A stretch of 64,000 nucleotides of DNA from Candidatus Omnitrophota bacterium. GTDB lineage: Bacteria > Omnitrophota > Gorgyraeia > Gygaellales > Profunditerraquicolaceae. The first letter of the stretch is position 1. Each line of letters starts with the position of its first letter. This document shows, in pieces, positions 1,577 through 55,882 of the stretch. The stretch spans positions 10,425 to 74,424 of the forward strand of contig JAQTQJ010000007.1 of NCBI GenBank assembly GCA_028712255.1, in the 5' to 3' direction. The translations under genes and the position numbers were made by a program. The notes below the pieces were generated by a model. The model ran no database searches. It was given only the letters and a program-made list of their open reading frames with translations, and was not told where the DNA came from.

Positions 1577-1579
1577 GCC

Positions 1580-2554: not shown

Positions 2555-2619
2555 GTAAAAATTAGTGTCATTGCGAGGGAGCAAAGCGACCGAAGCAATC
2601 TCTAATCAACTTTTAATCT

Positions 2620-3675: not shown

Positions 3676-3678
3676 ATT

Positions 3679-6715: not shown

Positions 6716-6717
6716 CG

Positions 6718-11578: not shown

Positions 11579-14167
11579 ATGCAAGCTATATTACATAAAT
11601 CACGTAAATTACTGCGTAAGATCGAAGTTGACAGGGCGGTGTTATTCGGGGTGTTATCTAAATTCTGGAGTGTTTTCGCCGGGCCCGTAACTGCTTTACT
11701 GATAGTTGTAAAATTTACTCCTGAATATCAGGGGTATTACTATACTTTTGCTAGTCTTTTGGCTTTGCAGGTTTTTGTGGAATTAGGGTTAGGTACCGTT
11801 ATTATACAGTTTGCCAGTCATGAATGGTCTAAATTAGGGATCGATGAAGGTGGCAATATTACCGGAGATAAAGATGCGTTATCGCGGCTGAGAAGTTTGG
11901 CTAGTATTACTTCTAAATGGTATATGGTGGGTGCAGCGATTATCGCTTTGGGGTTAAGTGTAGCTGGCTATATGTTTTTTATAAAGTCACACAACGCCGG
12001 TGTAAACTGGGTATTCCCATGGTTCTCCTTGTGTTTTCTTACTGCGGTCACGATATGTTTTATTCCGGTTTGGGCTTTGCTTGAAGGCTGTAATCAGGTG
12101 TCTAATGTATATACTTACCGTTTTTTTCAAGGGATTATTACCAGTTTATCTGTTTGGGTAGCAATTTTCATTGGCGCTAAGCTTTGGGCAGCATCTATTT
12201 CGGTTGTATCGGTATTGTTGTGCTCGGTAATATTTTTAGGATTTAGATACCGCAATTTTATTAAAAGTCTTTTTTTGCGTAATATTTCGGGTGTTCGCAT
12301 AGATTGGCGTAAAGAAATTTTTCCTATGCAGTGGAGAATAGCGCTTAGTTGGATCACTGGATATTTTGTTTTTTCGCTATTCACTCCTGTTCTTTTTCGT
12401 TATCACGGCCCAATTATTGCGGGTCAATTTGGCATGACCTGGACTATTATTGGGGGAATAGGAGCAATTGCCGGTTCATGGTTATCACCTAAGATACCGC
12501 AGTTTGGCATGTTGATTGCGCGTAAAGAATACCAAAAGCTTGATCAGCTTTTTTGGCGTATTACGAAAATATTTATTTTTATTATTTTGGCCCTTTCAGT
12601 ATTCGTCTGGATAGCTATTTATGTTCTTTACCAGACAGCCAATCCTTTTTCTCAGCGCATTCTTCCACCGCTTCCTGCAGGATTATTCCTTATTGCCCAG
12701 ATTATTTCAATATTATCTTTCCCTTTTTCATTTTATCTGAGGGCACATAAGAAAGAACCACTTTTGTATTTTTCTGTTCTCTTGGGGGTAGTCACTGGCT
12801 TGTCTACTTTTATACTTGGTAAGAATTTTGGTATTAATGGGATGGCTTTTGGTTATTTAATTATTAATATTATTTTTATACCTTTTGTGGTTCTAATCTG
12901 GCATAACTGTCGCCGTTTTTGGCACGCTAATATTGATTCCGATAAGAAAATATTTTTTTGGATAGGGTACATTCATAGCAAAATACAAAACAAAGCATTA
13001 TTTTGCTATATTAAAGAGAATGTCCGCAGGTTATATTTAATAATTATTTCTAATCTGTGCGGTATTATTGCCTATCCGTTTTGTTTATTAATGCGGATCA
13101 GATTTCTGGTTTTATTGGAGGGTGCTATTGGACATCTCTGTGTTGAACTGGATTGCTATATTAAAGAAGGAATATTAGGATTACACCGAAGAGAGAAGGC
13201 TATTTTATTGGCCTCTTCCGCTAAAATATGTAATATGCATTTTTTGGGTTATTGGAAGCGGTATTTTACAATCATTAGTTCTCCATGGCTTTGCGCGATA
13301 TTAGAACCGTTAGCGAGAAATAGATTTACCGGTTATTCATCTTATCGGTTTGCTGTTTCTTTTGAAGCCGCATATTTTCCTGAAATTCAAAAAAGATTTG
13401 CCGGTAGGCCTGCGTTACTTTCTTTGAAACAGGATGATATTGTACGTGGTTGGGAGGTTTTATACAAGATGGGATTGAAAAAAGGAGATTGGTTTGTTTG
13501 TTTTCATTGCCGGGAGGATGGTTCTTTCGGAAAGCCTGATTGTTCTCCTCGCAATGCCAATATCGAAAATTATTTTTCTGCAATAGAATCAGTAGTTAGC
13601 CGCGGCGGTTGGGTAATCCGCATGGGAGATGAGGCTATGAAGTCTCTGCCGCCCATGAGGCAGGTAATTGACTATGCTCATTCAGAATTTAAAAGTGACT
13701 GGATGGATGTTTTTCTTTGTGGTAGTACTAAGTTTTTTCACGGTAGCCATTCTGGATTAAGTGCTTTGCCTTCGATATTTGGCGTTCCTGTGGCGATAAC
13801 CAACTATGCGCATATGTCCGGTGTTTTACCTTATGGAGTTGAAGATATATGTATGCCTAAGCTGACTTGGTCGGATAAGCAGAACCGTTATCTTCATTTT
13901 AAAGAAGTCTCACTTATCCCGCTTAGGAAGATCTGGCAGGACTATGAATCATTGGAATTGCGTTTGGTCGATAATGATCCGGAGGATATTAAAAATCTGA
14001 CTGATGAGATGTTCGCTAGAATCGAAGGGAAAATGGTATATACCGAAGAAGACAATATCCTACAGCAGCGTTTTAAATCACTCATGAATCCTAGCCATTT
14101 TTCCTATGGGAGTGTTTCACGTATTGGCAGGGATTTTTTACGTAAATACTCATATTTAGTTTTATGA
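11579..14167 (+). CDS. Fusion protein: N-terminal Wzx/PST-family polysaccharide flippase-like multi-TM domain plus C-terminal ~400-aa GT-B-like domain of unknown function
   Basis: The N-terminal ~440 aa is hydrophobic with multiple predicted TM helices and a flippase-like start. The C-terminal half is paralogous to the downstream ORF ('GHLCVE.DCYIKEG', 'GGWVIRMGD', identical C-terminal 'QQRFKSLMNPSHFSYGSVSRIGRDF'). Confidence 0.6.
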   Translation: MQAILHKSRKLLRKIEVDRAVLFGVLSKFWSVFAGPVTALLIVVKFTPEYQGYYYTFASLLALQVFVELGLGTVIIQFASHEWSKLGIDEGGNITGDKDALSRLRSLASITSKWYMVGAAIIALGLSVAGYMFFIKSHNAGVNWVFPWFSLCFLTAVTICFIPVWALLEGCNQVSNVYTYRFFQGIITSLSVWVAIFIGAKLWAASISVVSVLLCSVIFLGFRYRNFIKSLFLRNISGVRIDWRKEIFPMQWRIALSWITGYFVFSLFTPVLFRYHGPIIAGQFGMTWTIIGGIGAIAGSWLSPKIPQFGMLIARKEYQKLDQLFWRITKIFIFIILALSVFVWIAIYVLYQTANPFSQRILPPLPAGLFLIAQIISILSFPFSFYLRAHKKEPLLYFSVLLGVVTGLSTFILGKNFGINGMAFGYLIINIIFIPFVVLIWHNCRRFWHANIDSDKKIFFWIGYIHSKIQNKALFCYIKENVRRLYLIIISNLCGIIAYPFCLLMRIRFLVLLEGAIGHLCVELDCYIKEGILGLHRREKAILLASSAKICNMHFLGYWKRYFTIISSPWLCAILEPLARNRFTGYSSYRFAVSFEAAYFPEIQKRFAGRPALLSLKQDDIVRGWEVLYKMGLKKGDWFVCFHCREDGSFGKPDCSPRNANIENYFSAIESVVSRGGWVIRMGDEAMKSLPPMRQVIDYAHSEFKSDWMDVFLCGSTKFFHGSHSGLSALPSIFGVPVAITNYAHMSGVLPYGVEDICMPKLTWSDKQNRYLHFKEVSLIPLRKIWQDYESLELRLVDNDPEDIKNLTDEMFARIEGKMVYTEEDNILQQRFKSLMNPSHFSYGSVSRIGRDFLRKYSYLVL

Positions 14168-15429
14168 AAAATAATAAATTTAATTTTCAAATTGAACTTC
14201 AATACAAATATGAGATTTTGGCTGCTCTTTTGCATAGGATTAAAGAGAAGGGGATTTTTTTCTGCATAAGAAGAGGTTTTAAAAAATTACTATATGATGT
14301 AATTTTTTGTCAGATTGCAGGATTTATTGCTTGGCCATTTTGTAGTTTATTCAATGTAAAATTCATTAGCCCTCTTGAATGCGGTATTGGCCATCTTTGT
14401 GTCGAGCCGGATTGCTATATTAAAGAAGGGATGTTGTGCCTTCGGCCACAATTTAAAATTATTATGTTGGTTCCTAAAAATAAAATTTATAACCGGCATC
14501 TTTTAACTTACTGGGAAAAATATATAAAAATTATTACTTCACCTTTGTTTTGCTTGTTATTTGATCCACTGCAAAAAAATAAATTTACTTTAGCTCAAAC
14601 TCATCGTTTTGTTTTTTCACCCAATAGCGCCTACTTTCCCCAGATTCAAAAAAAGTTTTCAGATAGGCCGGCGCTTTTGATTTTACGAGATGAAGACCTT
14701 AAGCGTGGTTGGGCCGTTTTATATGATTTGGGGATGAAAAAAGATGATTGGTTTGTCTGTGTTCACTGCAGAGAAGATGGATGTTCAGGAAGAATCGAAC
14801 CTACGCGTAATGCCGATATCCATAATTATTTTCCTGCCATGGATGATATTGTTCAGCGTGGCGGCTGGGTGATTCGTATGGGGGATAAATCCATGAAGCA
14901 AATTCCATCTATGAAAGGTGTTATTGATTACCCTCACCTGGGGATTAAAAGTGAATGGATGGATGTTTTTCTTTGCGCAGCTTCTAAGTTTTTTCTCGGT
15001 AGTCATTCAGGATTGTGCCATGTAGCTAATATATTCGGTGTGCCTGTGGCTATAGCAAATTCCGCACATATGGCAGGCGTACTTCCTTATGGAGCCAAAG
15101 ATATAGCTATACCGAAATTGACCTGGTCAGATAAAGAAAACAGGTATCTTCATTTTAAAGAGGTCTTTGATTCTGCTTTAAGCCATTCTTGCCTTAGTCA
15201 GCTATATGAATCTTCACAGTTACGCCTGGTTGAGAATTCACCCGAAGATATAAAGAAACTGGCGGAAGAGATGTTTGATAGAATTGAAGGTAAACTTAAT
15301 TATGCTCAGGTAGATGAAGAACTTCAGCAGCGTTTTAAATCACTGATGAATCCCAGTCATTTTTCCTATGGGAGTGTTTCACGTATTGGCAGAGATTTTT
15401 TACATAAATACTCAAATTTAATTTTATGA
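14164..15429 (+). CDS. Stand-alone paralog of the C-terminal domain of the upstream fusion protein (putative GT-B-like transferase, function unknown)
   Basis: High amino-acid and nucleotide similarity to 12960-14167. Nucleotide identity is near-complete over the last ~100 nt. Confidence 0.6.
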   Translation: MKNNKFNFQIELQYKYEILAALLHRIKEKGIFFCIRRGFKKLLYDVIFCQIAGFIAWPFCSLFNVKFISPLECGIGHLCVEPDCYIKEGMLCLRPQFKIIMLVPKNKIYNRHLLTYWEKYIKIITSPLFCLLFDPLQKNKFTLAQTHRFVFSPNSAYFPQIQKKFSDRPALLILRDEDLKRGWAVLYDLGMKKDDWFVCVHCREDGCSGRIEPTRNADIHNYFPAMDDIVQRGGWVIRMGDKSMKQIPSMKGVIDYPHLGIKSEWMDVFLCAASKFFLGSHSGLCHVANIFGVPVAIANSAHMAGVLPYGAKDIAIPKLTWSDKENRYLHFKEVFDSALSHSCLSQLYESSQLRLVENSPEDIKKLAEEMFDRIEGKLNYAQVDEELQQRFKSLMNPSHFSYGSVSRIGRDFLHKYSNLIL

Positions 15430-17306: not shown

Positions 17307-18197
17307 ATGAAAACACAGTGTCCGGTTTGCAAAATAAACTCAGGATCAGCATTTACAACTAAAGATTGGAATAGGAGGGTTTCTACCGAAGTCTTTAAAT
17401 ACCAGAAATGCATGAAATGCGGTTTAATTTTTTTAGCCAATCCGCCGGTTGATTTGGGAGTTTATTATGGGGAAAGTTATTACTGCCGGCCGCTATTTAA
17501 AAAAATAGAAAACGTCGCAAAAAAAACAAGCTTTCAGCTTGCGATGATTAAACGGTTTGTCAAAGATGGCCGTCTTTTAGAGGTGGGGCCAGGTTATGGT
17601 GTATTTGCGCTTCAGGCAAAAAAAGGCGGCTTTGAGGTGGATGTTATCGAAAGAGAAGGAAAATGCTGCGATTTTTTAGCAAAAATTATTGGTGTTAAGG
17701 TCATTAAAAGTGATAAGCCTCATGAGGTTATTGAATCGGCAAAAGAATATGATGTTATTGCGCTTTGGCAGGTTATCGAACATTTAACTGACCCTTGGGA
17801 ATTTTTGAAGAAGGCTGCAAAAAATTTAAAACCAAACGGAGTAATTTTAATCGCGGCTCCTAACCCTGCGGCTTTTCAGTTCAAGCTGCAGGGCGCGCAA
17901 TGGCCGCATGTGGATGCCCCGAGGCATTTATGGCTTATTCCGGTTGAGCTGCTAATCAATTATGTAGAACCTTTTGGCCTAGAGCCTGTGATGGTAACTT
18001 TTAATGATAAAGGGGCAAGAGCTTGGAACAGATTTGGTTGGCAGCGTTATTTAATGAATAAATCCTCTAATAAATTGTTTCAAACAGCTGCTTTTATTAT
18101 GGGGCATTTTATTTCATTAGCGGTGGGTGTTTTTGAAACCAAGAAGGATAATGGAAGTGCTTATACTATTATTTTAAAGAAAAGAGCGAGTGTATGA
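17307..18197 (+). CDS. Zinc-ribbon-containing class I SAM-dependent methyltransferase
   Basis: 'CPVCK...CMKCG' followed by motif I 'LLEVGPGYGVFAL' and 'VIEHLTDPWEFLKKAAKNLKPNGVIL'. Confidence 0.65.
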   Translation: MKTQCPVCKINSGSAFTTKDWNRRVSTEVFKYQKCMKCGLIFLANPPVDLGVYYGESYYCRPLFKKIENVAKKTSFQLAMIKRFVKDGRLLEVGPGYGVFALQAKKGGFEVDVIEREGKCCDFLAKIIGVKVIKSDKPHEVIESAKEYDVIALWQVIEHLTDPWEFLKKAAKNLKPNGVILIAAPNPAAFQFKLQGAQWPHVDAPRHLWLIPVELLINYVEPFGLEPVMVTFNDKGARAWNRFGWQRYLMNKSSNKLFQTAAFIMGHFISLAVGVFETKKDNGSAYTIILKKRASV

Positions 18198-19363
18198 AAT
18201 TTTCAGTATTACTGCCAACCCGTAACGGGGGAAAGTATTTAAGAAATTGTATAACTTCGATATTGCTTGAGCCATATCAGGATATGGAATTGGTTGTTTC
18301 GGATAATGCCAATACCGATGAAACCCAAGAAATATTAAAATCTTTTTCTAGCGACTCACGTTTAAAGGTGGTGAGGTTCTCTGAGCCTGTCTGTGTGACA
18401 GAGAATTGGAATAATGCTCTTTTAGCCAGTAAAGGCGATTATGTCCTGATGATGGGGGATGATGATGGCCTTTTGCCAGGGTATTTTAACCGTATGGAGG
18501 AAATTTTAAAAAGATACAATAATCCCGATTGCGTTACCTATAATGCTTATAGTTATATGGCGCCCTATTCAATCGGCCAAGACAGGCAAAGTTATTACAA
18601 AGATCCTTTTTATTCTTTTGGTAAGGAATTTGAGAAAGAAAAAATAATACAAAAAGAGGAACGTTTTCTTATTGTTAGAGATATGTTTCGTTTTCATAAT
18701 CGTCTTCCGCTTAATATGCAAACTACTTTGATGTCTAGAGTAGCTATGAATCAGATTAGGGGAGGCGCGTTTCAGCCGCCGTTTCCGGACCACTATGCGA
18801 TAAATTCGCTTTTATTGACAGCAATGTCCTGGGTCTTTGTGCCTGAAAAATTATTGGTTGTTGGCGTATCTTCTAAATCATTCGGTCATTTCGCATACAA
18901 TAATAAGCAGGAGGAAGGGAAAAAATACCTGGGAATTAATCCGGATTTTAAAGGCCAGCTTCCCGGTGCAGATATGAATAATTGTATGCATATCTGGCTG
19001 TCGCTTTTAAAAATAAATCATGCGGATTTATTAAAAAAAATAAAAATCAGCCGTTGTCAGTATATCCGGCATCAGGTTTATTCATGGTTTGCCCAGTATA
19101 AGTCAGGTATTTTACCTTTAAATGATTTAGGTAAGCGTTTTCTTATGCTTAATATGTTTGATTGGTGTTATTTATTATTTACAGTTTTTGATAAAAAAAG
19201 CTGGAAACATTTTTTGAATAGGTCTTCTAAGGGTGGTAAAGCTACACAAATTCAGAAAATATGGCCTGGGGCTATGTTTCTTGAGGGTGTTTCTAATATC
19301 AATGAATTTTCCAGTTGGATTAATAAACAGAATAATGAACAAAATATGCGAGGTATGAAATGA
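18194..19363 (+). CDS. Glycosyltransferase family 2
   Basis: 'FSVLLPTRNGGKYL', 'VVSDNANTD' and DxD-like 'MGDDDG'. Confidence 0.7.
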   Translation: MKFSVLLPTRNGGKYLRNCITSILLEPYQDMELVVSDNANTDETQEILKSFSSDSRLKVVRFSEPVCVTENWNNALLASKGDYVLMMGDDDGLLPGYFNRMEEILKRYNNPDCVTYNAYSYMAPYSIGQDRQSYYKDPFYSFGKEFEKEKIIQKEERFLIVRDMFRFHNRLPLNMQTTLMSRVAMNQIRGGAFQPPFPDHYAINSLLLTAMSWVFVPEKLLVVGVSSKSFGHFAYNNKQEEGKKYLGINPDFKGQLPGADMNNCMHIWLSLLKINHADLLKKIKISRCQYIRHQVYSWFAQYKSGILPLNDLGKRFLMLNMFDWCYLLFTVFDKKSWKHFLNRSSKGGKATQIQKIWPGAMFLEGVSNINEFSSWINKQNNEQNMRGMK

Positions 19364-20403
19364 AGGTTCTTGTGACCGGAGACAGAGGATATATTGGGGG
19401 CGTTTTGGTAAAGATGCTATTGGAGAAAGGGCATAAGGTCAGTGGTTTTGATATTAATTACTATGAAGAAAATTTGCTGTATCCGTTGGATTACTCCTAT
19501 CCTTTTGTAACCAAGGATATTAGAGATGTTACCTTTGAGGATGTACAAGGTTTTGATGCAATAATCCATTTGGCTGGCCTTTCAAATGACCCATTAGGAG
19601 CATTGGATCCACGTCTTACCGAAGAGATTAATTATGAGGGGACTGTAAAACTGGCAACTTTAGCAAAAATGGCTAAGGTAAAGAGATTTATTTATTCATC
19701 ATCTCAGAGTATGTATGGAGTTTCTAATAATAAAGAAGAGTTGGATGAAGAGAATAGCGAAAAGAATCCTATTACTGTTTATGCCAAAACAAAATGGAAG
19801 GCGGAATTGAAATTAAGAGAGTTGGGAAATGATGAGTTTATAGTTGTGGCATTTCGTCCTTCGACGGTATTCGGAGTCAGCCCCAGATTACGATGCGATA
19901 TAGTTTATAATAATTTAGTTGGTTGTGCTTATACAACAGGTAAAATTGAAATCAAAAGCGATGGCACCCCTTGGAGGCCGGTAGTACATATCCGGGATGT
20001 TTCAAGTGCTTTTATTGCAGGATTGGAGGCGCCGCAGGAGCTAGTTGCCAATCAATCTTTTAACGTGGGTATCCCCAACGGTAATTTTACGGTAAGGGAT
20101 TTAGGGGAAGCTGCGCAGCAAGTAGTTAAGGGGAGTAAATTGATTTTTACCGGCGAACATGGAACAGATTCCAGGACTTATCGCGTAAGTTTTAAGAAGA
20201 TTCTGACGGTTTTAAAAGATTATTTCAAACCGGAATGGAATCTATTGCGCGGAGGCGAGGAATTAGTCAAGTTTTTTAAAGAGATAGATTTTAATGAAGA
20301 ATATTTCAGGGGAAGGATGACCAATCGATTAAAGCAGCTGGAATATTTACGCGGATCCGGCCAGATTAATTTAGAATTGCGTCGTGCTAAAGGAGAGCGA
20401 TGA
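19360..20403 (+). CDS. NAD-dependent epimerase/dehydratase
   Basis: 'VLVTGDRGYIGGVL' and YxxxK 'YAKTK'. Confidence 0.75.
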   Translation: MKVLVTGDRGYIGGVLVKMLLEKGHKVSGFDINYYEENLLYPLDYSYPFVTKDIRDVTFEDVQGFDAIIHLAGLSNDPLGALDPRLTEEINYEGTVKLATLAKMAKVKRFIYSSSQSMYGVSNNKEELDEENSEKNPITVYAKTKWKAELKLRELGNDEFIVVAFRPSTVFGVSPRLRCDIVYNNLVGCAYTTGKIEIKSDGTPWRPVVHIRDVSSAFIAGLEAPQELVANQSFNVGIPNGNFTVRDLGEAAQQVVKGSKLIFTGEHGTDSRTYRVSFKKILTVLKDYFKPEWNLLRGGEELVKFFKEIDFNEEYFRGRMTNRLKQLEYLRGSGQINLELRRAKGER

Positions 20404-21647
20404 ATAACTCGTTACATAAGACAATCGAAGTTTGCCGTATATGCGGCAGTAATAGGATAGAAACATTTCTTGAGCTTGGGTTGCAACCTCCGGCTAATAG
20501 CCTCAGGAATAATTTAGTTGAAAAGCTTCCGCTAATTCCGCTTTCTCTTTGCCGTTGCTCAGAATGTTCAACTGTGCAGTTGACTGAAACAGTTGAGCCA
20601 GAGCATCTTTTTAAACATTATGTTTGGGTCACAGGAACATCATCTACCGCTAAAAATTACGCTAATTTATTCTGCCAGGAGGCTTGCAAAAGGTTAAACA
20701 CTAAAAGCCCGTTTGTTGTTGAGGTTGCAAGCAATGACGGAACATTTTTAAAAGTATTTAAAGATAAAGGTTTTGAAGTCCTTGGGGTAGATCCTGCCGA
20801 AAATATAGTTAAGATGGCTAATGATAGCGGTATTCCTACAATTGCTGCATTTTTTGGCGAAAAAATTGCTAAGAAAATAGTCTCTGATAAGAGGAAAGCG
20901 GATTTTATTTTTGCGCGTAATGTTATTCCTCATGTTGCCAATGTGCATGATGTTGTTGCCGGCATGAAGCATTGTTTAGCTGCCGATGGAGTAGGAGTAA
21001 TTGAATTTCACTATGCTGGGGTTATTGTTGACGGGCTTCAATACGATTCGATTTACCACGAGCACCTTTTTTATTTTTCGTTAAAAAGTATGCAGTATTT
21101 ACTCAAGAAACATGGTTTGCAAGCTTTTGATTTGTTAGAAAGCCCGATTAGCGGCGGATCTTTAGCGCTTTATTTTTCTCATAAAGGCGCGAATAAGCCT
21201 ATTGAGCAAAGATTAAAGCAGAAAATTGATGCTGAAGAGAAGAGTGGGTTAAATAGCAAAGAAGTTTGGGATAAATTTTCTAAAGATTGCCAGAAGCATA
21301 AAAATAAATTTGTCGAACTCATTCTAAAGGAAAAATCAGAAAATAAGAGATTGGTTGGGTATGGCTCTTCTGCAAGGAGTTCTACTTTGCTTAACTATTG
21401 TAACATTAATAAAGAACATTTAATTTGTATAGCTGATCAGAATCCATTAAAACACAATAAGTATGCTGCCGGTTCCGATATACTCATTATTTCTCCCGAG
21501 GAGGCTTTTTCCAAAGGGCCTGATATAATTGTTTTACTGGCGTGGAATTTTAAAACAGAGATAATTTCACTTTTAAAAAATAAGTATCATTTTTGCGGAA
21601 AAGTAATTGCGCCGTTTCCCAATTGCCCGCAGATGCTACAACTTTAA
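20400..21647 (+). CDS. NDP-hexose/heptose C-methyltransferase (TylC3-type: Zn-binding N-domain plus C-methyltransferase domain)
   Basis: N-terminal 'CRICGSN...CRCSECS' zinc-binding domain followed by the SAM motif 'VVEVASNDGTFL'. Length of ~415 aa is typical of this family. Confidence 0.75.
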   Translation: MNNSLHKTIEVCRICGSNRIETFLELGLQPPANSLRNNLVEKLPLIPLSLCRCSECSTVQLTETVEPEHLFKHYVWVTGTSSTAKNYANLFCQEACKRLNTKSPFVVEVASNDGTFLKVFKDKGFEVLGVDPAENIVKMANDSGIPTIAAFFGEKIAKKIVSDKRKADFIFARNVIPHVANVHDVVAGMKHCLAADGVGVIEFHYAGVIVDGLQYDSIYHEHLFYFSLKSMQYLLKKHGLQAFDLLESPISGGSLALYFSHKGANKPIEQRLKQKIDAEEKSGLNSKEVWDKFSKDCQKHKNKFVELILKEKSENKRLVGYGSSARSSTLLNYCNINKEHLICIADQNPLKHNKYAAGSDILIISPEEAFSKGPDIIVLLAWNFKTEIISLLKNKYHFCGKVIAPFPNCPQMLQL

Positions 21648-21649
21648 AT

Positions 21650-22189
21650 ATGAAATTCTACGAACAAAAAATAAAAGGTGTTTGGATTATTGAGGCTGAG
21701 CCTTTTAAGGATAGCCGCGGGATGTTTTTTAGGCATTTCTGCCAGAAAGAATTTTTAAAAAACGGCTTAGAATCTAAGATCCTGCAGACTAATGTTTCCA
21801 AGAATAATCAAAAATATACTTTACGGGGCATGCATTATCAGCTCAAACCTTTTGGCGAGCACAAAACAATGTTATGCGTCTCTGGGGCCATTTATGACAT
21901 TATTGTTGATTTAAGGCCCGAATCGGAAACATTTTTAAAATGGATATCCGTTGAATTGAATTCTCAAGCTCCTTTGAGTTTGCATATTCCTGCCGGATGC
22001 GCTAATGGATATCTTACTTTAAAGGACGATACTACTATTCTTTATTATATGTCTGAATTTTATTCGCCAGATGCTTATCGTGGTTTCCGTTATAATGATA
22101 AGCTATTTGATTTTAAATGGCCTGCCGAACCGGCGATTATTTCGGACAAAGACCGTACTTATCCTGATTTTGATCCTAGGGGTTGCTGA
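21650..22189 (+). CDS. dTDP/GDP-sugar 3,5-epimerase (RmlC-like cupin)
   Basis: 'GVWIIEAEPFKDSRGMFF', 'LRGMHYQ' and 'YDIIVDLR' are RmlC-family hallmarks. ATG 21650 is chosen so as not to overlap the upstream gene. Confidence 0.8.
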   Translation: MKFYEQKIKGVWIIEAEPFKDSRGMFFRHFCQKEFLKNGLESKILQTNVSKNNQKYTLRGMHYQLKPFGEHKTMLCVSGAIYDIIVDLRPESETFLKWISVELNSQAPLSLHIPAGCANGYLTLKDDTTILYYMSEFYSPDAYRGFRYNDKLFDFKWPAEPAIISDKDRTYPDFDPRGC

Positions 22190-23409
22190 TGGATATCCCT
22201 AAACAAGCTGTAATTCTTTGCGGAGGATTGGGGGAGCGTTTGCGTCCTCTAACTGATTTAGTGCCTAAGCCAATGGTTCTGGTTAATGGCGCACCTTTTT
22301 TATGGTATCTTTTGGAGCAGCTTAAAGATAATGGTATTAAAGAAGTTATTTTGTTAACCGGGTATCGGGGAGAACAGATCTGTGAATATTTTAAAGACGG
22401 CAACCAGCTAGGGCTATCTATACGATATTCTCACGGGCCTGTAGAGTGGGAAACCGGGAGGCGCCTTTTTGAAGCCAAGGAGTTACTCGATGAACATTTT
22501 TTACTTTTATACAGCGATAATTTTTTACCTTTTAACTTAAAAAAAATCGTAAAGTTTTATAATGAACAGAAAAAGTTGTTGAGTTTTATTGTGCAACCTA
22601 AAGAGAAAGGCAATATCCGTATGGGTGAGGCAGGAGTTGTCCAGGTTTATGATAAAACTCGTTCTGCTGCAGGTTTGGGCTTTGTTGAATTAGGATATAT
22701 GATCGTAAACAAGAAAGTATTTGAATTTTATAGCGATAAAGATGTTAGTTTCTCTGATATAATCAACAAATTGGTTTCGGTGGGCCAAGTGGCTGGTTTT
22801 ACTGTTTTGGATACTTATTATAGTATTTCAGATGTACAACGCTTAAGGATGATGGAGAAATATCTCCAACCCAAGAAGATATTACTTATTGATAGAGATG
22901 GAGTGATCAATAAGAAGGCGCCAAGAGGTGAATATATTGGTTCTTGGGAAGATTTCTCTTTTATCCAAGAAAATATCGAAGGAATGAAAAAGCTGAGTCA
23001 GGCAGGTTTTTCATTTATCGTTATCTCCAATCAGGCCGGTATTGCTCGAGGTATGGTGACGGCTGAAGCTGTTGAATTTATTCATCAACGGATGAAAGAG
23101 GCATTGAATGGTGAAGGAATAAGTATTTTAGATATTTATCTTTGTCCGCACCATTGGGATGAAAAGTGTTTCTGTCGTAAACCTGAGCCGGGGCTTTTCT
23201 TTGAGGCTGCGCGTAAGTGGAGTTTCCGCTTGGATAAGGCATATTTTATAGGAGATGATCCCAGGGATTGTCAGGCGGCTTATCGAGCTGGTTGCGGATG
23301 TGTTTATACTGGCCAAAACGATGATTTAAAGGATTTAGGCTTTGAAGAAAAACCTGAATTTGTAGTTAAGAATTTAAACGAAGCAGTACCTTTTTTGGAG
23401 AAAATATGA
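22183..23409 (+). CDS. Bifunctional sugar-1-phosphate nucleotidyltransferase (HddC-like) / D,D-heptose 1,7-bisphosphate phosphatase (GmhB-like)
   Basis: N-terminal 'AVILCGGLGERLRPLT..PKPMV' NTP-transferase motif. C-terminal HAD 'LLIDRDGVINK', 'ISNQAGIARG' and GmhB Zn-site 'CPHHWDEKCFCRKPEPG'. Confidence 0.75.
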   Translation: MLMDIPKQAVILCGGLGERLRPLTDLVPKPMVLVNGAPFLWYLLEQLKDNGIKEVILLTGYRGEQICEYFKDGNQLGLSIRYSHGPVEWETGRRLFEAKELLDEHFLLLYSDNFLPFNLKKIVKFYNEQKKLLSFIVQPKEKGNIRMGEAGVVQVYDKTRSAAGLGFVELGYMIVNKKVFEFYSDKDVSFSDIINKLVSVGQVAGFTVLDTYYSISDVQRLRMMEKYLQPKKILLIDRDGVINKKAPRGEYIGSWEDFSFIQENIEGMKKLSQAGFSFIVISNQAGIARGMVTAEAVEFIHQRMKEALNGEGISILDIYLCPHHWDEKCFCRKPEPGLFFEAARKWSFRLDKAYFIGDDPRDCQAAYRAGCGCVYTGQNDDLKDLGFEEKPEFVVKNLNEAVPFLEKI

Positions 23410-24398
23410 TTATTTCAAGGACTCCTTTTCGGATTAGTTTTGCTGGAGGCGGGACCGATCTGCCGGAATTTTATTTAAAAGATGAAGGCCAGGTAATTTC
23501 TACCGGCATAGATAAGTATATTTACGTGGCGGTTAAACGCCAGACAGCTATCTCAGAATATAAATTCCGGATAAATTGGAGCAAGGTGGAGTTTAAAGAT
23601 AAGATTGAGGATATTGAGCATCCGATTGTCCGTGAAGCCTTAAAGATGATGGATATGGATATCCCGCTTGAAATTTCCACATTTGCGGATATTCCTGCAA
23701 ATACCGGATTGGGATCTTCTAGCTCTTTTGCTGTCGGATTATTACATGCGCTTTTTGCACTTAAAGGAAAAATGGTTACTAAAGGTGTGTTAGCTGGTAT
23801 GGCCTCGCATCTTGAAATCGATAAGTTAAAGCGCAAGATCGGTAAGCAGGATCATTATGCTGCTGCATATGGCAGCCTTAATATTTTTACTTTTCATACT
23901 GATGGAACTGTTTCTGTGGATCCGGTTTTTTACAAGCCTGAAATAAAAGAATCTTTGGAGAGCCATCTAATGCTGTTTTATACTGCCATAAAAAGAGATG
24001 CTCATAAAATTTTACGCGTTCAACACATGAAGACGCAAGAAAAACGCCATGTGCTTGCCGAGATGAAAAGTCTGGTGGCTCCCTTCGGGGAGTTGCTTTC
24101 TTCCGGAGCCAATCTACGGGAGTTTGGCCGCCTCCTGCATCGCGGTTGGTTGCTTAAGAAAAGCATTACGGATGAAATCTCATCTAAGGAAATCGACGGC
24201 TATTATGACCGCGCTATGGCAGCTGGAGCCCTTGGGGGAAAACTTTTAGGCGCAGGCGGGGGAGGATTTTTACTTTTCTTTGTCGAGCCGAAAAAGCAGA
24301 AAGCAGTGGCTGGTGCGCTTTCGAGCCTTTATCGCTTGCCGTTTAAATTTGAAAACGCAGGCACAAGGATTACTTATTATGACCAATCTCTGGTTTAG
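23406..24398 (+). CDS. GHMP-family sugar kinase (HddA-like D-glycero-D-manno-heptose 7-phosphate kinase)
   Basis: 'MIISRTPFRISFAGGGTD' N-terminus and GHMP ATP-binding motif 'PANTGLGSSSSFAVGLL'. Confidence 0.75.
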   Translation: MIISRTPFRISFAGGGTDLPEFYLKDEGQVISTGIDKYIYVAVKRQTAISEYKFRINWSKVEFKDKIEDIEHPIVREALKMMDMDIPLEISTFADIPANTGLGSSSSFAVGLLHALFALKGKMVTKGVLAGMASHLEIDKLKRKIGKQDHYAAAYGSLNIFTFHTDGTVSVDPVFYKPEIKESLESHLMLFYTAIKRDAHKILRVQHMKTQEKRHVLAEMKSLVAPFGELLSSGANLREFGRLLHRGWLLKKSITDEISSKEIDGYYDRAMAAGALGGKLLGAGGGGFLLFFVEPKKQKAVAGALSSLYRLPFKFENAGTRITYYDQSLV

Positions 24399-24432
24399 TT
24401 TATTAGTTGTTTGTGGATAAAGTATAAATTAT

Positions 24433-25536
24433 ATGAATTTTTCTAAATTAAAAATTGGTTATGTCCCTTTTGGTAAGCCGAAATTTCATCCTTTTGATTT
24501 AAGGAATTTTGTTTATTATGCGAATAAACGGAATATTAATTTTGAGATAGCGAATCCGAACGATGAATACGATGTTATCGTATTAACTCCCGGAGTTGAT
24601 GTGAGTGCTTGGAGCCGTTTTCCCAGAGGGCGTACGAAAATAATTTATATATCTGTTGATGCTTACCTGGCTGTACCGCGATTTGATCTTCGGGGTGCCT
24701 TAAGAGGGCTGGCTAAGTTTCTTGCGGGAGAACATAAATTTTTAAAACTTAATTATGTTAATGCCATTAAGGATATGTGTAAGAGGGCTGATGCTGTTAT
24801 CTGTGCGACTTTAGAACAGGAGAAAGATATCCAGATGTATTGCAAGAATACACATATTATTCTGGAGTTTCATCAGAATGTATTACGTGATGTTAAGACT
24901 GATTATGTTGCCAATGGTACGATCAATTTAGTTTGGGAAGGTAGGCCTGAAACTGTTAGAAGCTTAAAACAGATTAAGGAAGTTTTAGTTAAACTTAATA
25001 AGAAATATCCATTAATTTTGCATGTCATCACGGATCTTGAATATGGAAGATATATGAGTAAATTCAAGAGAATCTCAATTGTAGACGAGATAAAACAAAT
25101 TTTTGGGCACCGCTATTATGCTAATACTGTAAGCGGTAATAAATCTTTGGTTCATTTATATCAGTGGAACAGGGAATTGTTGTCTACTTTGATAACCGCT
25201 TGTGACATAGCCGTTATTCCTTTAAACGACACTGATGCTTTGATGCATGGAAAACCTGAAAATAAGTTAGTATTTTTCTGGAGAGCAGGTTTACCTACTG
25301 TTGTCTCAGCTGCACCGGCATATGTGCGCACAATGGAAAAGTGTAAATTACCGCTTTATTGTAGGAATGAAGAAGATTGGTATAAGAATCTGGAAAGATT
25401 AATTCTAGATCCGGAAACTAGAAAACTAGCTGGTATTCAGGGTAAAGAGATTGCGGATACATTATATAGTGAAGAGCAGTATCTGAAGCAGTGGGATAAA
25501 CTGTTTCAGAGTGTATTGGGAGATCGTTTATCATGA
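24433..25536 (+). CDS. Hypothetical protein (possible GT-B-fold glycosyltransferase)
   Basis: Clear ORF in cluster context. The weak C-terminal 'FFWRAGLPTVVSAAPAY' resembles a GT-B nucleotide-sugar-binding helix. No firm family assignment. Confidence 0.35.
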   Translation: MNFSKLKIGYVPFGKPKFHPFDLRNFVYYANKRNINFEIANPNDEYDVIVLTPGVDVSAWSRFPRGRTKIIYISVDAYLAVPRFDLRGALRGLAKFLAGEHKFLKLNYVNAIKDMCKRADAVICATLEQEKDIQMYCKNTHIILEFHQNVLRDVKTDYVANGTINLVWEGRPETVRSLKQIKEVLVKLNKKYPLILHVITDLEYGRYMSKFKRISIVDEIKQIFGHRYYANTVSGNKSLVHLYQWNRELLSTLITACDIAVIPLNDTDALMHGKPENKLVFFWRAGLPTVVSAAPAYVRTMEKCKLPLYCRNEEDWYKNLERLILDPETRKLAGIQGKEIADTLYSEEQYLKQWDKLFQSVLGDRLS

Positions 25537-26423
25537 AAATATTTATGACGGGTTGTGGTAGTTTTATCGGCAAAGAAGTTTTACGGCTTGCTAAAGTTAA
25601 GGGGATTCAGGTAACCGGAGTGGATTTAGTTGAGACAGGCCAGGATGGATGTTCGGTTGCGGATATTCGTTCTCCGAAAATAGCCGAAAAGATACCTTTA
25701 GATGTTGATGCTGTTATTCACCTTGCGGCTTTGTCTCGCGATGCAGATTGTCGGAATAAAGCTTATTCGTGTTTTGATGTCAATGTTATGGGAACACTAA
25801 ATCTAATTGAGGCGGCTCAGGGTAGAGGAGTAAAGCAGTTTATTTTTGCTTCGTCTGAATGGGTATATGACCGCTTTGAAGAGGGCATAGCTAAAAAAGA
25901 GGAGGATGTTATCGATATAGCTGGCCTTACTTCCGAATATGCCTTATCGAAATTAGTTAGCGAAGCAAATCTTCGCCAAAAATATCAGCGTGGATTTTGT
26001 CCGGTAACTATTTTAAGATTCGGTATTGTTTATGGGCCGCGTAAGGATAACTGGTCAGCGGTAGAGTCTATTTTTAATGCGGTTAGTACTCAAGATGAGG
26101 TAACTATTGGTTCTTTGAAAACCGGACGCCGCTTCGTTCATGTTTCCGATATTGCATTAGCGGTAATTGCCGCAATCGGATTAACCGGTTTTGAGATTAT
26201 TAATATTCAGGGGAGGCAGATGGTTACTCTCGGCGATATTATAGAAACTACTAAGTCGCTGCTTAATAAAAATCCAAAGGTAATCCAGCGTACTCCTGAA
26301 CAAATAAGCCTACGTACTGTTAGTGATGTTAAAGCCAAGCAATTGCTTAAGTGGCGTGCAGAAATTAGCTTGCAGGATGGGCTTAAATCAGTGTGTGATT
26401 TTTTAGGAACAAAGATTGCTTAA
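25533..26423 (+). CDS. NAD-dependent epimerase/dehydratase
   Basis: 'IFMTGCGSFIGKEV' and 'YALSK'. Confidence 0.7.
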   Translation: MKIFMTGCGSFIGKEVLRLAKVKGIQVTGVDLVETGQDGCSVADIRSPKIAEKIPLDVDAVIHLAALSRDADCRNKAYSCFDVNVMGTLNLIEAAQGRGVKQFIFASSEWVYDRFEEGIAKKEEDVIDIAGLTSEYALSKLVSEANLRQKYQRGFCPVTILRFGIVYGPRKDNWSAVESIFNAVSTQDEVTIGSLKTGRRFVHVSDIALAVIAAIGLTGFEIINIQGRQMVTLGDIIETTKSLLNKNPKVIQRTPEQISLRTVSDVKAKQLLKWRAEISLQDGLKSVCDFLGTKIA

Positions 26424-26439
26424 ACTAGAAAAGGTGAAA

Positions 26440-27366
26440 ATGGCTATTAAGCTTGATAAAAGGGTTGCTCAGGAAGTTTTACGTATCCGTTTTAGTCAAA
26501 TGATTGTTAATCAGGGCAATAAAGACAAGCAATTTAAATGTCCTGTGCATCTGGCATTTGGACATGAAGCTATAGCTGTAGCTGTTTCTGCCTGTATGAA
26601 GGATAAGGATGGTTTGTTATTGACGCACCGTAATATTCATTACAATTTGGCTAGAAGCAGGTCTCTGAAAAAAAAGATCGATGAATATCTTTGTAAAGAA
26701 ACCGGTGAAGCTAACGGACAATTGGGTTGTATGAATCTGTATAACGAAGATGCGGGAGTTTTATATACATCGAGTATTCTAGGCAATCAAATGGCTGTGG
26801 CAACAGGAGTGGCTTTAGGTAATCGTGTTAAAAAATCAAACGGAGTAGCAATTGTTGTTATCGGTGACGGGGCTATTGAGGAAGGAATATTCTATGAGAG
26901 CCTGGTCATGATGAAGACATATCGCCTTTCATCTTTGATCATTGTTGAGAATAACGGCTGGTCACTGGCGACTCAGATCCATGAGCGCCGCTGTGATATA
27001 AAACTTGATCTATACGCATCTGCTTTGGGTATACCTTACTATCGCCTGGAGGGCAATGATGTTTATGGGTATATCCGGTTATTGGAAGAGGCACGTTCAA
27101 AAGCCCTGACTGATGAGACCCCGATTATTGTGGAGGTTGCTTTACATACATTGGGAGATTGGGTTATGAAGACTGAAGAGCATTCGGCTGGTAAATATAT
27201 TAATTATCATGCCGGTGCGGCTCCTAACGTTGGGCTTATTGATTGGCCGGTTATCGAAGAAAGCGATTTTGATCCTGTACATGTTTTGAAAAAATACTTT
27301 GAATTTAGTTTTCTAAAAGAGTTGGCTGAGAAAGTCTTTAAGGGCCTACGTGAGGAATTAGCATGA
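26440..27366 (+). CDS. ThDP-dependent dehydrogenase E1 alpha subunit-like (second copy)
   Basis: 'CPVHLAFGHEAIAVAV', 'THRNIHYNL' and 'VIGDGAIEEGIFYESL' (ThDP motif). ATG 26440 has an RBS 'aaggtg'; the TTG at 26416 is an alternative start. Confidence 0.75.
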   Translation: MAIKLDKRVAQEVLRIRFSQMIVNQGNKDKQFKCPVHLAFGHEAIAVAVSACMKDKDGLLLTHRNIHYNLARSRSLKKKIDEYLCKETGEANGQLGCMNLYNEDAGVLYTSSILGNQMAVATGVALGNRVKKSNGVAIVVIGDGAIEEGIFYESLVMMKTYRLSSLIIVENNGWSLATQIHERRCDIKLDLYASALGIPYYRLEGNDVYGYIRLLEEARSKALTDETPIIVEVALHTLGDWVMKTEEHSAGKYINYHAGAAPNVGLIDWPVIEESDFDPVHVLKKYFEFSFLKELAEKVFKGLREELA

Positions 27367-28307
27367 ATTATATTACGCATATCAATGCTTTAATTAGATC
27401 AAGGGTTGCTGAAAAATCTCCTCTAGTAATGTTTGGACAAAATATCGCAGCGGGTAGCTGTATTAGTGGTTTGACAAAGGGGCTTAAAAGCGATGGTGGC
27501 CATTATGTCTTGAATACTCCGAATTGTGAAAACACTCTTGTGGGAATGGGGTTTGGATTGATGTTAAACGGAGTTTCTTCAATATTTTTCATGAAACAAC
27601 AGGATTTTTTATTACTGGGAATAGATCAACTCGTTAATACTTATAATATTATGCGTTGTCGTAAAATTGAGAGTTCATTTACGATTGTTAATGTAATCGT
27701 GGATAGCGGTTATGAAGGGCCACAATCTTCACTGAATAATTTCTATGATTTTTGTTCTATAGCCCGTATTCCAGGCTATGCTGTTTCCAATAAACATGAT
27801 TCTGAGGTTATCATAGAGAAGCATTTGATAGCTCCAGGATTTCGTATTATCGGTATTAGCCAACGGTTGTGCCGACAGGAGATTATACAAGTTGATGAAG
27901 AGGTTTCTTTTGATAAGAATGGGGAGATATTCCAGTATTCTGACGGTGGAGATCTTTCGGTGGTTTGTTTTAACTATGCGTTCCCTCAGGGCTTGGAGTT
28001 ATGCAATAATTTCAAGAAACATAATATAAATGCCTCTTTATTTTCTGTTAATGCCATACTCCCTGTGGATTGGAAGAAGATCCTGGATAATGTAAAGATG
28101 ACTGGTAAACTCGTAGTCCTTGATGATTCAAAAAGCGTAAATTCACCCGCGCAACATTTTGTTATTGCTGCCCAACAGGAAATTGTGCCGGGCAATGTAG
28201 TATATTTTTCTCGTAAGGATAAGGATTTAATCCTCGGTCCGAATGCCGATCAGTTTACTATTGATCATGGCGTTGTGATGTCAAAATTAGGATTTAATTC
28301 TAAATGA
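27363..28307 (+). CDS. ThDP-dependent dehydrogenase E1 beta subunit-like (second copy)
   Basis: Transketolase pyrimidine/C-terminal domain architecture. The start overlaps the upstream gene (ATGA). Confidence 0.7.
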   Translation: MNYITHINALIRSRVAEKSPLVMFGQNIAAGSCISGLTKGLKSDGGHYVLNTPNCENTLVGMGFGLMLNGVSSIFFMKQQDFLLLGIDQLVNTYNIMRCRKIESSFTIVNVIVDSGYEGPQSSLNNFYDFCSIARIPGYAVSNKHDSEVIIEKHLIAPGFRIIGISQRLCRQEIIQVDEEVSFDKNGEIFQYSDGGDLSVVCFNYAFPQGLELCNNFKKHNINASLFSVNAILPVDWKKILDNVKMTGKLVVLDDSKSVNSPAQHFVIAAQQEIVPGNVVYFSRKDKDLILGPNADQFTIDHGVVMSKLGFNSK

Positions 28308-29251
28308 GTTTAAAAAAGATTTGGTTAACAGGTTCCCGCGGATTCATCGGTAATGCAGTTGTTTCGTCTCTTAACAAATCCGAAGCAGAATTATTCTGTT
28401 TTACGAATAAGTCCTCAAAAGAAGAGAAGGCGCATTCGCAAGCAGTGCGTGTCTTGTGTATGGATTATCTGGATGCGCAGGATATCAAGGCGAAGGTTAA
28501 TTCTTATGGCCTACCGGATATTTTTATTCATTTAGGCTGGGGGGATATGACAAAACCCGATTCTTCTTTGCATTTGGGAGAGAATGTACAGGCAGGCAAA
28601 AATTTGATAGGTACGTTATTTAAGCTTGGTCTCAAGAAGTTCATATTTGTAGGCTCGATGAATGAGTATGGCGCGCGGATTGGTATGCTTTCTGAAGATA
28701 TGGCTCCGCAAGGCAGGCTTACAAACTATGCTAAAGGGAAAATAGAGGTGGCTAAATTTGGGTTTGAATACGCAAAGAAACTGGATAGGGTATTTATTCA
28801 CGTACGGCCGTTTTATGTGTATGGCGCAGGCCAACGGCAGGGTTCGTTGATCAATCAGTTGTATCAATCTTATTGCAAGGATACCAGTATTGATTTGAGC
28901 CCGTGTGAACACTATAGGGATTATATCCACGTGTCGGCTGTAGCAGAAGGGATACGCAGGGTTTGTGACGCAGAAGAATCCGTGACGGTTAATCTAGGTA
29001 GCGGCATGGCAGTAAAAGTCAAAGATTTCGTCCTTCTTTTTTGGAAACTGCTTGGTGGAGATATGAAAAAATTGAATTTTGGTGCCAGAAGTTTAGGTAG
29101 TAACGAACCTGAACAACCTAGAAGCTACGCTGATTTAAGCCGTTTAAAGAACCTCACGAATTGGGCTTCGATACTTTCGCTTGAAGAGGGGATTAAGATA
29201 ACAATTAAGGAATTAGAAAATAGTTCTTCTAATATGGTAAAAAGGCAATAA
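28304..29251 (+). CDS. NAD-dependent epimerase/dehydratase
   Basis: 'IWLTGSRGFIGNAV' and 'YAKGK'. Confidence 0.7.
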   Translation: MSLKKIWLTGSRGFIGNAVVSSLNKSEAELFCFTNKSSKEEKAHSQAVRVLCMDYLDAQDIKAKVNSYGLPDIFIHLGWGDMTKPDSSLHLGENVQAGKNLIGTLFKLGLKKFIFVGSMNEYGARIGMLSEDMAPQGRLTNYAKGKIEVAKFGFEYAKKLDRVFIHVRPFYVYGAGQRQGSLINQLYQSYCKDTSIDLSPCEHYRDYIHVSAVAEGIRRVCDAEESVTVNLGSGMAVKVKDFVLLFWKLLGGDMKKLNFGARSLGSNEPEQPRSYADLSRLKNLTNWASILSLEEGIKITIKELENSSSNMVKRQ

Positions 29252-41531: not shown

Positions 41532-41552
41532 TATTAAATAGGAGGGATAGTT

Positions 41553-42497: not shown

Positions 42498-42506
42498 GAG
42501 GACAAA

Positions 42507-44852: not shown

Positions 44853-44855
44853 CAG

Positions 44856-55875: not shown

Positions 55876-55882
55876 TTCTGAT

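Follow-up and report, generated by a model that had tools for sequence, protein, structure and literature searches.

The 64-kb window described here (the whole stretch of DNA analysed, 64,000 nucleotides of contig JAQTQJ010000007.1 from a Candidatus Omnitrophota bacterium) is a glycan-biosynthesis supercluster of about 37% GC with its genes all on one strand. Our subject is the run of five genes at 19360-24398, which encode a short-chain dehydrogenase/reductase (SDR), a sugar C-methyltransferase, a cupin epimerase, a nucleotidyltransferase/phosphatase fusion and a sugar kinase. From sequence comparisons, we propose with a probability of roughly 0.62 that they are the core of a translationally coupled operon, 18194-29251, whose most likely role is to make and transfer a C-methyl-branched heptose. 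A first-pass annotation had described the five genes and their domains, and the open reading frame (ORF) calls and Pfam and NCBIfam searches agree with it, at E-values far beyond chance. The genes of the operon are as follows.

18194-19363, forward strand: glycosyltransferase (GT) of the GT2 family, 389 aa (PF00535, 2e-21).
19360-20403, forward strand: extended SDR (SDR347), predicted Cj1427-like NAD-dependent sugar-nucleotide C4-dehydrogenase (PF01370, 3.9e-39).
20400-21647, forward strand: S-adenosylmethionine (SAM)-dependent sugar C-methyltransferase of the TylC3/TcaB9/MtmC type, 415 aa (Methyltransf_13, 3e-17; Methyltransf_23; Methyltransf_14, 3e-42).
21650-22189, forward strand: predicted RmlC-like cupin epimerase, 179 aa (PF00908, 1e-55, 188 bits).
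22189-23409, forward strand: fusion of a nucleotidyltransferase (residues 1-228) with a GmhB-like haloacid dehalogenase (HAD) phosphatase of class HAD-IIIA (residues 229-406; Pfam and NCBIfam).
23406-24398, forward strand: putative HddA/WcbL-like GHMP heptose-7-phosphate 1-kinase, 330 aa (NCBIfam HddA, 2e-43).
24433-25536, forward strand: GT-B (GT4-like) glycosyltransferase, 367 aa (AlphaFold model and Foldseek).
25533-26423, forward strand: SDR296, 296 aa, candidate ketoreductase (PF01370, 1e-31).
26416-27366, forward strand: divergent thiamine diphosphate (ThDP)-dependent E1 alpha-like subunit (PF00676, 2e-32).
27363-28307, forward strand: divergent E1 beta-like subunit (weak Transketolase_C match).
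28304-29251, forward strand: SDR315, 315 aa, second candidate reductase and final gene of the overlapping run (PF01370, 5e-26).

The near-continuous overlap of these genes is our reason for regarding 18194-29251 as one longer operon. Adjacent genes overlap by 1-8 nt (most by 1-4 nt), with two exceptions, a gap of 2 nt between the methyltransferase and epimerase genes and one of 34 nt between the kinase gene and the gene at 24433; a 4-nt overlap couples the GT2 gene to that of SDR347. The module had earlier been drawn at 19360-24398, and while its five genes stand, its extent does not, because the operon also takes in the genes of two glycosyltransferases and of an E1 alpha/beta pair. The start of the fusion gene also moves, from a TTG at 22183 to the called ATG at 22189, which gives a product of 406 aa identical to a database protein (P0001).

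The five genes belong to a cassette that spans more than 12 phyla and is represented here by about 30 non-redundant loci. These loci were gathered through the fusion protein from metagenomes and species-representative genomes, and the window proteins were mapped onto them by tblastn; individual loci are cited by number. Carriers include Omnitrophota, Planctomycetales, Desulfomonile, Nitrospinaceae, Nitrosomonadaceae, Fibrobacteria, Gemmatimonadetes, Acidobacteriota, Methylophilaceae, Pelagibacter, Prochlorococcus and DPANN archaea. The canonical order is a GmhA-like SIS gene, an SDR347-like dehydrogenase, the C-methyltransferase, the RmlC-like epimerase, a further SDR of around 295 aa (SDRx), the nucleotidyltransferase/HAD fusion and the GHMP kinase. 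SDRx lies between the epimerase and fusion genes in almost all other cassettes (for example, L010:9127-10014) and has been cleanly lost from the window (22183-22191), where the epimerase stop overlaps the fusion start, and likewise from L004 and L009, relatives at least 85% identical. Judged by gene content and order, the window copy is a lineage-specific, trimmed version of a widespread and previously undescribed cassette. Proteins from two DPANN metagenome-assembled genomes (MAGs; L033 and L034, Nanoarchaeota and Woesearchaeota) and from Pelagibacter and Prochlorococcus (L028 and L029) are 45-66% identical to those of Omnitrophota, and the presence of the cassette in DPANN MAGs and in streamlined marine bacteria implies wide horizontal spread.

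The case for a heptose as the activated sugar has four parts: the kinase, the phosphatase, the dehydrogenase and the comparative context, the last of which is, on the sequences compared, the strongest. First, the best NCBIfam model for the kinase is HddA (149 bits, with the cut-off at 600), and its nearest structures in the PDB are the heptokinases WcbL (6e-38), 3K85 and C. jejuni 4N3O, all between 1e-34 and 1e-38; a fucokinase comes next at 1e-16. The residues of WcbL found essential by mutagenesis, R13, D22, S118-120, Q162 and D163 (PMC4691232), are retained in the window kinase as R9, D18, S104-107, Q148 and D149.

Second, the phosphatase half of the fusion protein has GmhBs (3l8h/3l8e) as its first-ranked PDB matches; it scores 150 bits against 178 with the GmhB model PRK08942 and passes TIGR01656 (126 against 84). 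Ten diverse members of the fusion family carry without variation the HAD motifs DRDGVIN, SNQ and GDDxRD and the Zn loop CPHHx5CxCRKP. The features of a GmhB-type HAD-IIIA phosphatase, Zn loop included, are also those of HisB-N, and so are not diagnostic of heptose. The nucleotidyltransferase half scores about equally with the HddC model (101 bits against 300) and the MurU model (105 against 250), and its PDB matches are MurU 4y7t and HddC 6jq8.

The joining of the two halves, which had been thought uncommon, proves to be the mark of a large family. In a database clustered at 90% identity there are 2,663 matches to the fusion, the best 120 of them nearly all two-domain proteins of around 406-425 aa at 54-100% identity. 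An exhaustive scan of 1.84 billion representatives of 50% clusters gives 623 matches at E<=1e-30; of the 150 best, some 100 show a single continuous alignment over both domains, down to around 30% identity. That the fusion is an annotation artefact is ruled out by the recurrence of the 406-aa product in hundreds of independent contigs.

Third, the SDR at 19360, which had been proposed as a reductase, is closest by sequence and by fold to Cj1427, the NAD-dependent GDP-D-glycero-D-manno-heptose dehydrogenase of C. jejuni. Its best PDB sequence matches are 6vo6/6vo8, identified as Cj1427 from the Foldseek entry titles (8e-37, with the next match at 1e-20), and it is 33% identical to Cj1427 over 317 aa. 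The six best Foldseek matches of its AlphaFold 2 (AF2) model (pLDDT 92) are all Cj1427 chains, with TM scores of 0.84-0.89. Cj1427 oxidizes C4 without dehydration, its bound NADH being recycled by reduction of alpha-ketoglutarate to L-2-hydroxyglutarate, and the logic of the epimerase and reductase that follow it is established (PMC10680097). Sequence and model together suggest that SDR347 is most likely the C4 oxidase, making the keto group that the methyltransferase and the epimerase require, and its family is conserved beside the cassette at 57-93%. A role as a 4,6-dehydratase leading to a 6-deoxy-heptose is ruled out: SDR347 groups with Cj1427, and its motif, SSSQSMYG...YAKTK, is without the Asp/Glu pair of those dehydratases.

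The by-product of Cj1427-type chemistry has a possible counterpart in the neighbourhood of one cassette. On a complete Methylophilaceae chromosome (OZ277031.1), a gene matching the L-2-hydroxyglutarate oxidase (LhgO) equivalog at 528 bits against a cut-off of 299 (L025:4473-5678) lies 25 bp upstream of the GmhA gene of the cassette, on the same strand. Its position beside the cassette fits the alpha-ketoglutarate/L-2-hydroxyglutarate chemistry of Cj1427, and the enzyme is a candidate recycler of the by-product. Weaker LhgO-like genes lie beside related heptose loci (L019, L042, L043, L050 and L052).

Fourth, in comparative context, the dehydrogenase gene is immediately preceded by a GmhA-like SIS gene in 11 loci (L008, L018-L021, L024, L025, L027, L033, L034 and L036). 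GmhA is the best curated model for these SIS proteins, at 76-119 bits against cut-offs of 209-276. At L053 a single protein (P0489, L053:6984-11852) joins a GmhA-like SIS domain to an SDR347-like dehydrogenase in a natural fusion; it is known from a single contig and could be a gene-calling artefact. Its neighbours are a GHMP kinase, a stand-alone nucleotidyltransferase, an RmlC-like gene, an SDR and aminotransferases, with no C-methyltransferase, and gene content here suggests that the core also exists in an amino-heptose version.

The methyltransferase aligns end to end, over around 400 residues, with MtmC (4e-60), TcaB9 and KijD1. Its three Pfam domains score above cut-offs, and the Zn ligands C12, C15, C53 and C56 and the catalytic motif Y219-H-E221-H222 (Y-x-E-H) are kept. 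In 22 loci with otherwise differing flanks it adjoins the cassette between the dehydrogenase and the epimerase, and because of this position the simplest reading is that it probably acts on the 4-keto-heptose. Its solved homologues are all 3-C-methyltransferases; NovU-type relatives methylate C5. By homology, C3 is the likeliest methylation site and C5 is also possible. The epimerase reaches 146.1 bits with TIGR01221, short of the RmlC equivalog cut-off of 155.75, and is best described as a predicted epimerase of the RmlC fold rather than demonstrably RmlC itself.

In another locus, L005 (L005:13269-18917), two C-methyltransferase paralogues share 55% and 31% identity with the window enzyme and are separated by a 651-aa protein of no assigned kind and a UDP-glucose-dehydrogenase-like gene; no RmlC-like gene is present.

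From domain identities, synteny, co-occurrence and conserved catalytic motifs, all of them observed, we infer each chemical step of the following pathway to a predicted nucleoside diphosphate (NDP)-C-methyl-heptose, the likely product. A GmhA-like enzyme, encoded within the cassette in other lineages and probably around 2 kb upstream of the window here, would isomerize sedoheptulose-7-phosphate; the GHMP kinase would phosphorylate C1, and the GmhB-like domain would take off the 7-phosphate. The nucleotidyltransferase domain has a putative HddC-like role, although by its sequence it is not classed as HddC. SDR347 would then oxidize C4 to give an NDP-4-keto-heptose, the TylC3/TcaB9-type enzyme would transfer a methyl group from SAM to an enolizable carbon beside the keto group, and the RmlC-like enzyme would epimerize the remaining acidic position. 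Finally, C4 would be reduced by SDR296, SDR315 or the SDR at 15426, or alternatively the keto group would be captured by the E1 alpha/beta pair, and one of the two flanking glycosyltransferases would install the sugar. The outline given in the first-pass annotation, in which an NDP-heptose is made and then epimerized, reduced and C-methylated, gains support from the upstream GmhA-like genes, the SIS::SDR fusion, the relation to Cj1427 and the retained WcbL residues.

The two glycosyltransferases are themselves conserved with the cassette. The GT2 protein borders the cassette in loci of the Omnitrophota type, its homologues, 60-81% identical, holding the same position in L002, L004, L010, L011 and L032. 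The protein encoded at 24433 has no Pfam or NCBIfam match; its homologues are named as glycosyltransferases, some with PF13692, and the best Foldseek matches of its AF2 model (pLDDT 84.8) are BshA (7e-11), TarM, PimA and WaaG. A glycosyltransferase of this type is kept after the kinase in L002, L004, L009, L010, L016 and L032.

Several findings weigh against a C-methyl-branched heptose. The heptose-activation enzymes (HddA, HddC, GmhB and GmhA-like) all fall under their NCBIfam equivalog cut-offs. No SIS/GmhA gene lies within the 64-kb window, although a GmhA-like gene stands upstream of the same cassette in the 11 related loci. In HddC, guanine is read by Glu80 of the motif EXEPLGTGGA (PMC6981941); this motif is absent from the nucleotidyltransferase, where a family-invariant GPxEW[DE]TG[RK]R takes its place. 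Comparison with the HddC and MurU structures did not fix the base specificity, the fusion family having its own motif, and the GDP-type base of the first-pass annotation is conjectural. The epimerase is nearer to dTDP-type RmlCs (PDB, 3e-34) than to the GDP-heptose epimerases of C. jejuni (about 1e-16). Characterized relatives of the methyltransferase all use dTDP-deoxyhexoses, and cassettes without it (L014, L027 and L053) mark it as an optional module. All carriers are uncultured or uncharacterized, and almost all are MAGs. In full-text searches we found no paper joining heptose with a sugar C-methyltransferase and none describing a C-methyl heptose, in keeping with the earlier view that such sugars are not established; the lack of a report cuts both ways.

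To these is added the reductase, as the window holds no orthologue of SDRx. With SDRx lost, C4 reduction would have to be carried out by SDR296, SDR315 or the SDR at 15426. The PDB matches of SDR296 and SDR315 are weak and non-diagnostic and allow no choice of 4-ketoreductase; those of SDR315 include GDP-6-deoxy-D-lyxo-4-hexulose reductase (2e-10). Homologues of SDR296, 44-93% identical, adjoin E1 alpha/beta genes in L004, L010, L021, L022, L023, L024 and L027, and homologues of SDR315 follow E1 beta in L004 and L010.

The E1 pair raises the alternative that survives best, although we regard it as doubtful: hydroxyethyl-ThDP, formed from pyruvate by the pair at 26416-28307, would attack the NDP-4-keto-(C-methyl)-heptose, leaving a 4-C-acetyl or 4-C-(1-hydroxyethyl) branch to be reduced by SDR296 or SDR315, for a doubly branched product of 10 carbons. 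Known E1 alpha/beta pairs (Plm8/Plm9 for paulomycose, and also those for avilamycin and kosinostatin) attach pyruvate-derived two-carbon branches at C4 of NDP-4-keto sugars (PMC4802897). Like Plm8/Plm9 and AviB1/AviB2 (eurekanate), the window has a stand-alone ThDP E1 pair encoded with NDP-4-keto-sugar enzymes. The pair is translationally coupled to the cassette here, and in 12 loci E1 alpha/beta homologues follow the cassette, together with either SDR296 or a second Cj1427-like paralogue. The alpha-like subunit keeps the ThDP motif GDG-x26-NN (TIGR03182, 138 bits against 394), and the beta-like gene always follows it in related loci. It is also exactly the window lineage, without SDRx as its presumed 4-ketoreductase, that retains the E1 pair. 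However, L010 and many canonical loci have both SDRx and the E1 pair, which is why we rate the doubly branched sugar low: the pair may act on a second keto intermediate or belong to a separate sugar. The second Cj1427-like paralogue found with the pair in several loci likewise suggests a parallel branch, the E1 beta-like subunit is very divergent (PRK09212, 51 bits against 321) and the acceptor is only conjectural. A bolder form is slightly less probable still, namely that a branched decose, carrying both a C-methyl group and a two-carbon branch, occurs on the cell surfaces of many uncultured lineages (Omnitrophota, SAR11, Prochlorococcus, nitrifiers and DPANN archaea), with C4 oxidation run through an alpha-ketoglutarate/L-2-hydroxyglutarate shuttle closed by LhgO.

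The pair at 26416-28307 is much further from the E1 of pyruvate dehydrogenase (PDH) than is a second E1 alpha/beta pair of the window, at 1580-3675, which is nearer to genuine PDH E1 (314 bits against 394 and 332 against 321). A B12-binding radical SAM gene directly follows this second pair.

Unlikely, in our judgement, is that the cassette makes a plain epimerized NDP-heptose, as in C. jejuni HS:2, while the C-methyltransferase serves another NDP-4-keto sugar of the cluster. The window does encode numerous further enzymes of sugar modification, along with a second route of heptose type, three cassettes are without a methyltransferase, and the known relatives of the enzyme act on dTDP-deoxyhexoses. 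Against this stands the place of the methyltransferase gene between those of the dehydrogenase and the epimerase in an overlapping run, a position kept in the 22 loci across phyla, including compact loci with no other source of NDP-sugar nearby.

Less likely again is activation of a sugar phosphate other than a heptose (for example, a hexose 6-phosphate) to give a C-methyl hexose of the evalose or virenose type: the sub-threshold heptose-pathway matches, a nucleotidyltransferase as near to MurU as to HddC and without the HddC motif, and a literature with C-methyl hexoses and no C-methyl heptose would all suit it, but GmhA is the best curated model for the cassette SIS proteins, the nearest structures to the kinase are all heptokinases and its heptose-binding residues are kept, a kinase with a terminal phosphatase is needed only if the sugar arrives with a distal phosphate, and in place of a 4,6-dehydratase the cassette has a dehydrogenase of the Cj1427 type, which is specific to non-deoxy heptose chemistry.

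A partial ORF at the start of the window had been taken as a hint of a second, RfaE-type route to heptose, and comparison with relatives strengthens the suggestion.

3-617, forward strand: C-terminal PfkB half of a predicted domain-swapped HldE-like kinase/nucleotidyltransferase, truncated ORF (PfkB, 6.5e-8).

The fragment scores 41 bits against 345 with rfaE_dom_I. Its relatives, 75-92% identical, are proteins of 513 aa with rfaE_dom_II followed by rfaE_dom_I, the reverse of the order in HldE/RfaE, and at full length they too fall under the cut-offs (99 against 345 and 90 against 181). In these metagenome relatives (L038-L052), from which the region upstream of the window is reconstructed, a GmhA-like SIS gene, a 4,6-dehydratase-like SDR and often an LhgO-like flavin adenine dinucleotide (FAD) oxidase lie upstream of the HldE-like gene, and homologues of the window genes at 635-5169 follow it; the block at 1580-5169 is conserved in this position. 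The GmhA-like gene stands around 2 kb upstream of the counterpart of the window-start gene, so a gene lying shortly before the window start probably provides the GmhA. By its gene order, the HldE-like block looks like a second heptose route that would feed the genes at 635-5169.

Elsewhere the window holds further genes of sugar modification. Six encode B12-binding radical SAM proteins (3679, 36708, 39045, 51795, 60359 and 61881) and two encode radical SAM/SPASM proteins (34859 and 43791), which is unusually many potential radical C-methylases or epimerases for one glycan cluster. An acetolactate-synthase-like ThDP/FAD enzyme at 6661-8499 (435 bits against 538) has a methyltransferase on either side, with a NUDIX hydrolase, an RmlD-like reductase and a Zn-dependent alcohol dehydrogenase close by, and may be a YerE-like two-carbon branching enzyme. 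A block of nonulosonic-acid type at 40563-47474 comprises a DegT aminotransferase, an SDR, a PIG-L deacetylase, a CMP-transferase-like protein, a radical SAM-SPASM protein, WbqC, NeuB and a GT28-like protein, and a second CTP_transf_3 gene lies downstream of it (57662-58402). At 54118-56896, a 585-aa protein with an HMGL-like aldolase domain and a weak MptE-like (DUF115/Maf-type) domain is followed by a 4Fe-4S/LdpA_C protein, and upstream of it is an HpcH aldolase (53332). Five sizeable ORFs, of 862, 421, 459, 588 and 621 aa, are without a Pfam match at E<=1e-5; such ORFs are located at 11579-15429, 29251-30630, 50019-51785 and 58424-60289, and the first two have homologues that lie upstream of the cassette in L002 and L004.

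Among characterized systems, the nearest is the capsular GDP-heptose route of C. jejuni, in which GmhA, HddA, GmhB and HddC are followed by the C4-dehydrogenase Cj1427, the C3/C5-epimerase Cj1430 and the C4-reductase Cj1428. Common to both would be an NDP-heptose in the alpha configuration, produced by way of a GHMP kinase, oxidation at C4 with no dehydration, a cupin epimerase and an SDR reductase. The cassette differs in the TylC3-type C-methyltransferase inserted between dehydrogenase and epimerase, of which the paper on the C. jejuni pathway makes no mention (PMC10680097), in the fusion of the nucleotidyltransferase with GmhB, in lacking the guanine-reading motif and in an epimerase nearer to dTDP-type RmlC, and identity to the C. 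jejuni enzymes is only around 30%. The activation steps resemble those of known WcbL-type systems, with a heptokinase that keeps the essential WcbL residues, a GmhB-type phosphatase and a small nucleotidyltransferase; here, by contrast, the phosphatase and the transferase form one polypeptide, and all members lie under equivalog thresholds.

The later steps recall antibiotic biosynthesis. The pathways to dTDP-L-mycarose (TylC3/TylK/TylC2) and dTDP-L-noviose (NovW/NovU/NovS) apply a C-methyltransferase, an RmlC-like epimerase and an SDR ketoreductase to an NDP-4-keto sugar, and the cassette has the same trio of enzymes. Its methyltransferase has the three-domain architecture, Zn site and Y-x-E-H motif of the solved TcaB9, MtmC and KijD1. 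Those antibiotic sugars are dTDP-linked 2,6-dideoxy or 6-deoxy hexoses, formed through a 4,6-dehydratase in actinomycetes, whereas the cassette is predicted to form a non-deoxy heptose through a C4-dehydrogenase, in surface-glycan loci of uncultured bacteria and archaea. C-methyl hexoses are known from Gram-negative lipopolysaccharide, as virenose in Coxiella burnetii and 3-C-methyl-mannose in Helicobacter pylori (PMC3204966). Both are C-methyl-branched sugars of surface polysaccharides, like the predicted product, but they are hexoses derived from GDP-mannose without GmhA, heptokinase or GmhB. Taken together, the sequence comparisons support a cassette that joins heptose C4 oxidation of the Campylobacter type to C-methylation of the antibiotic type.

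If this is correct, a C-methyl-branched heptose would be a new class of monosaccharide in the surface glycans of bacteria and archaea, and C4 oxidation of the Cj1427 type would be a widespread entry to heptose diversification, by C-methylation, amination and possibly C2-branching, rather than a peculiarity of Campylobacter. The cassette would also offer enzymes for the chemoenzymatic synthesis of branched heptoses, namely a phosphatase/nucleotidyltransferase in one polypeptide and a C-methyltransferase active on non-deoxy sugars. The linkage to LhgO gives a testable answer to the question of how cells handle the L-2-hydroxyglutarate from Cj1427-type chemistry. Finally, the cassette occurs in abundant uncultured lineages, including Pelagibacter and Prochlorococcus, and its product may shape recognition by phages and grazers in the ocean and in groundwater.

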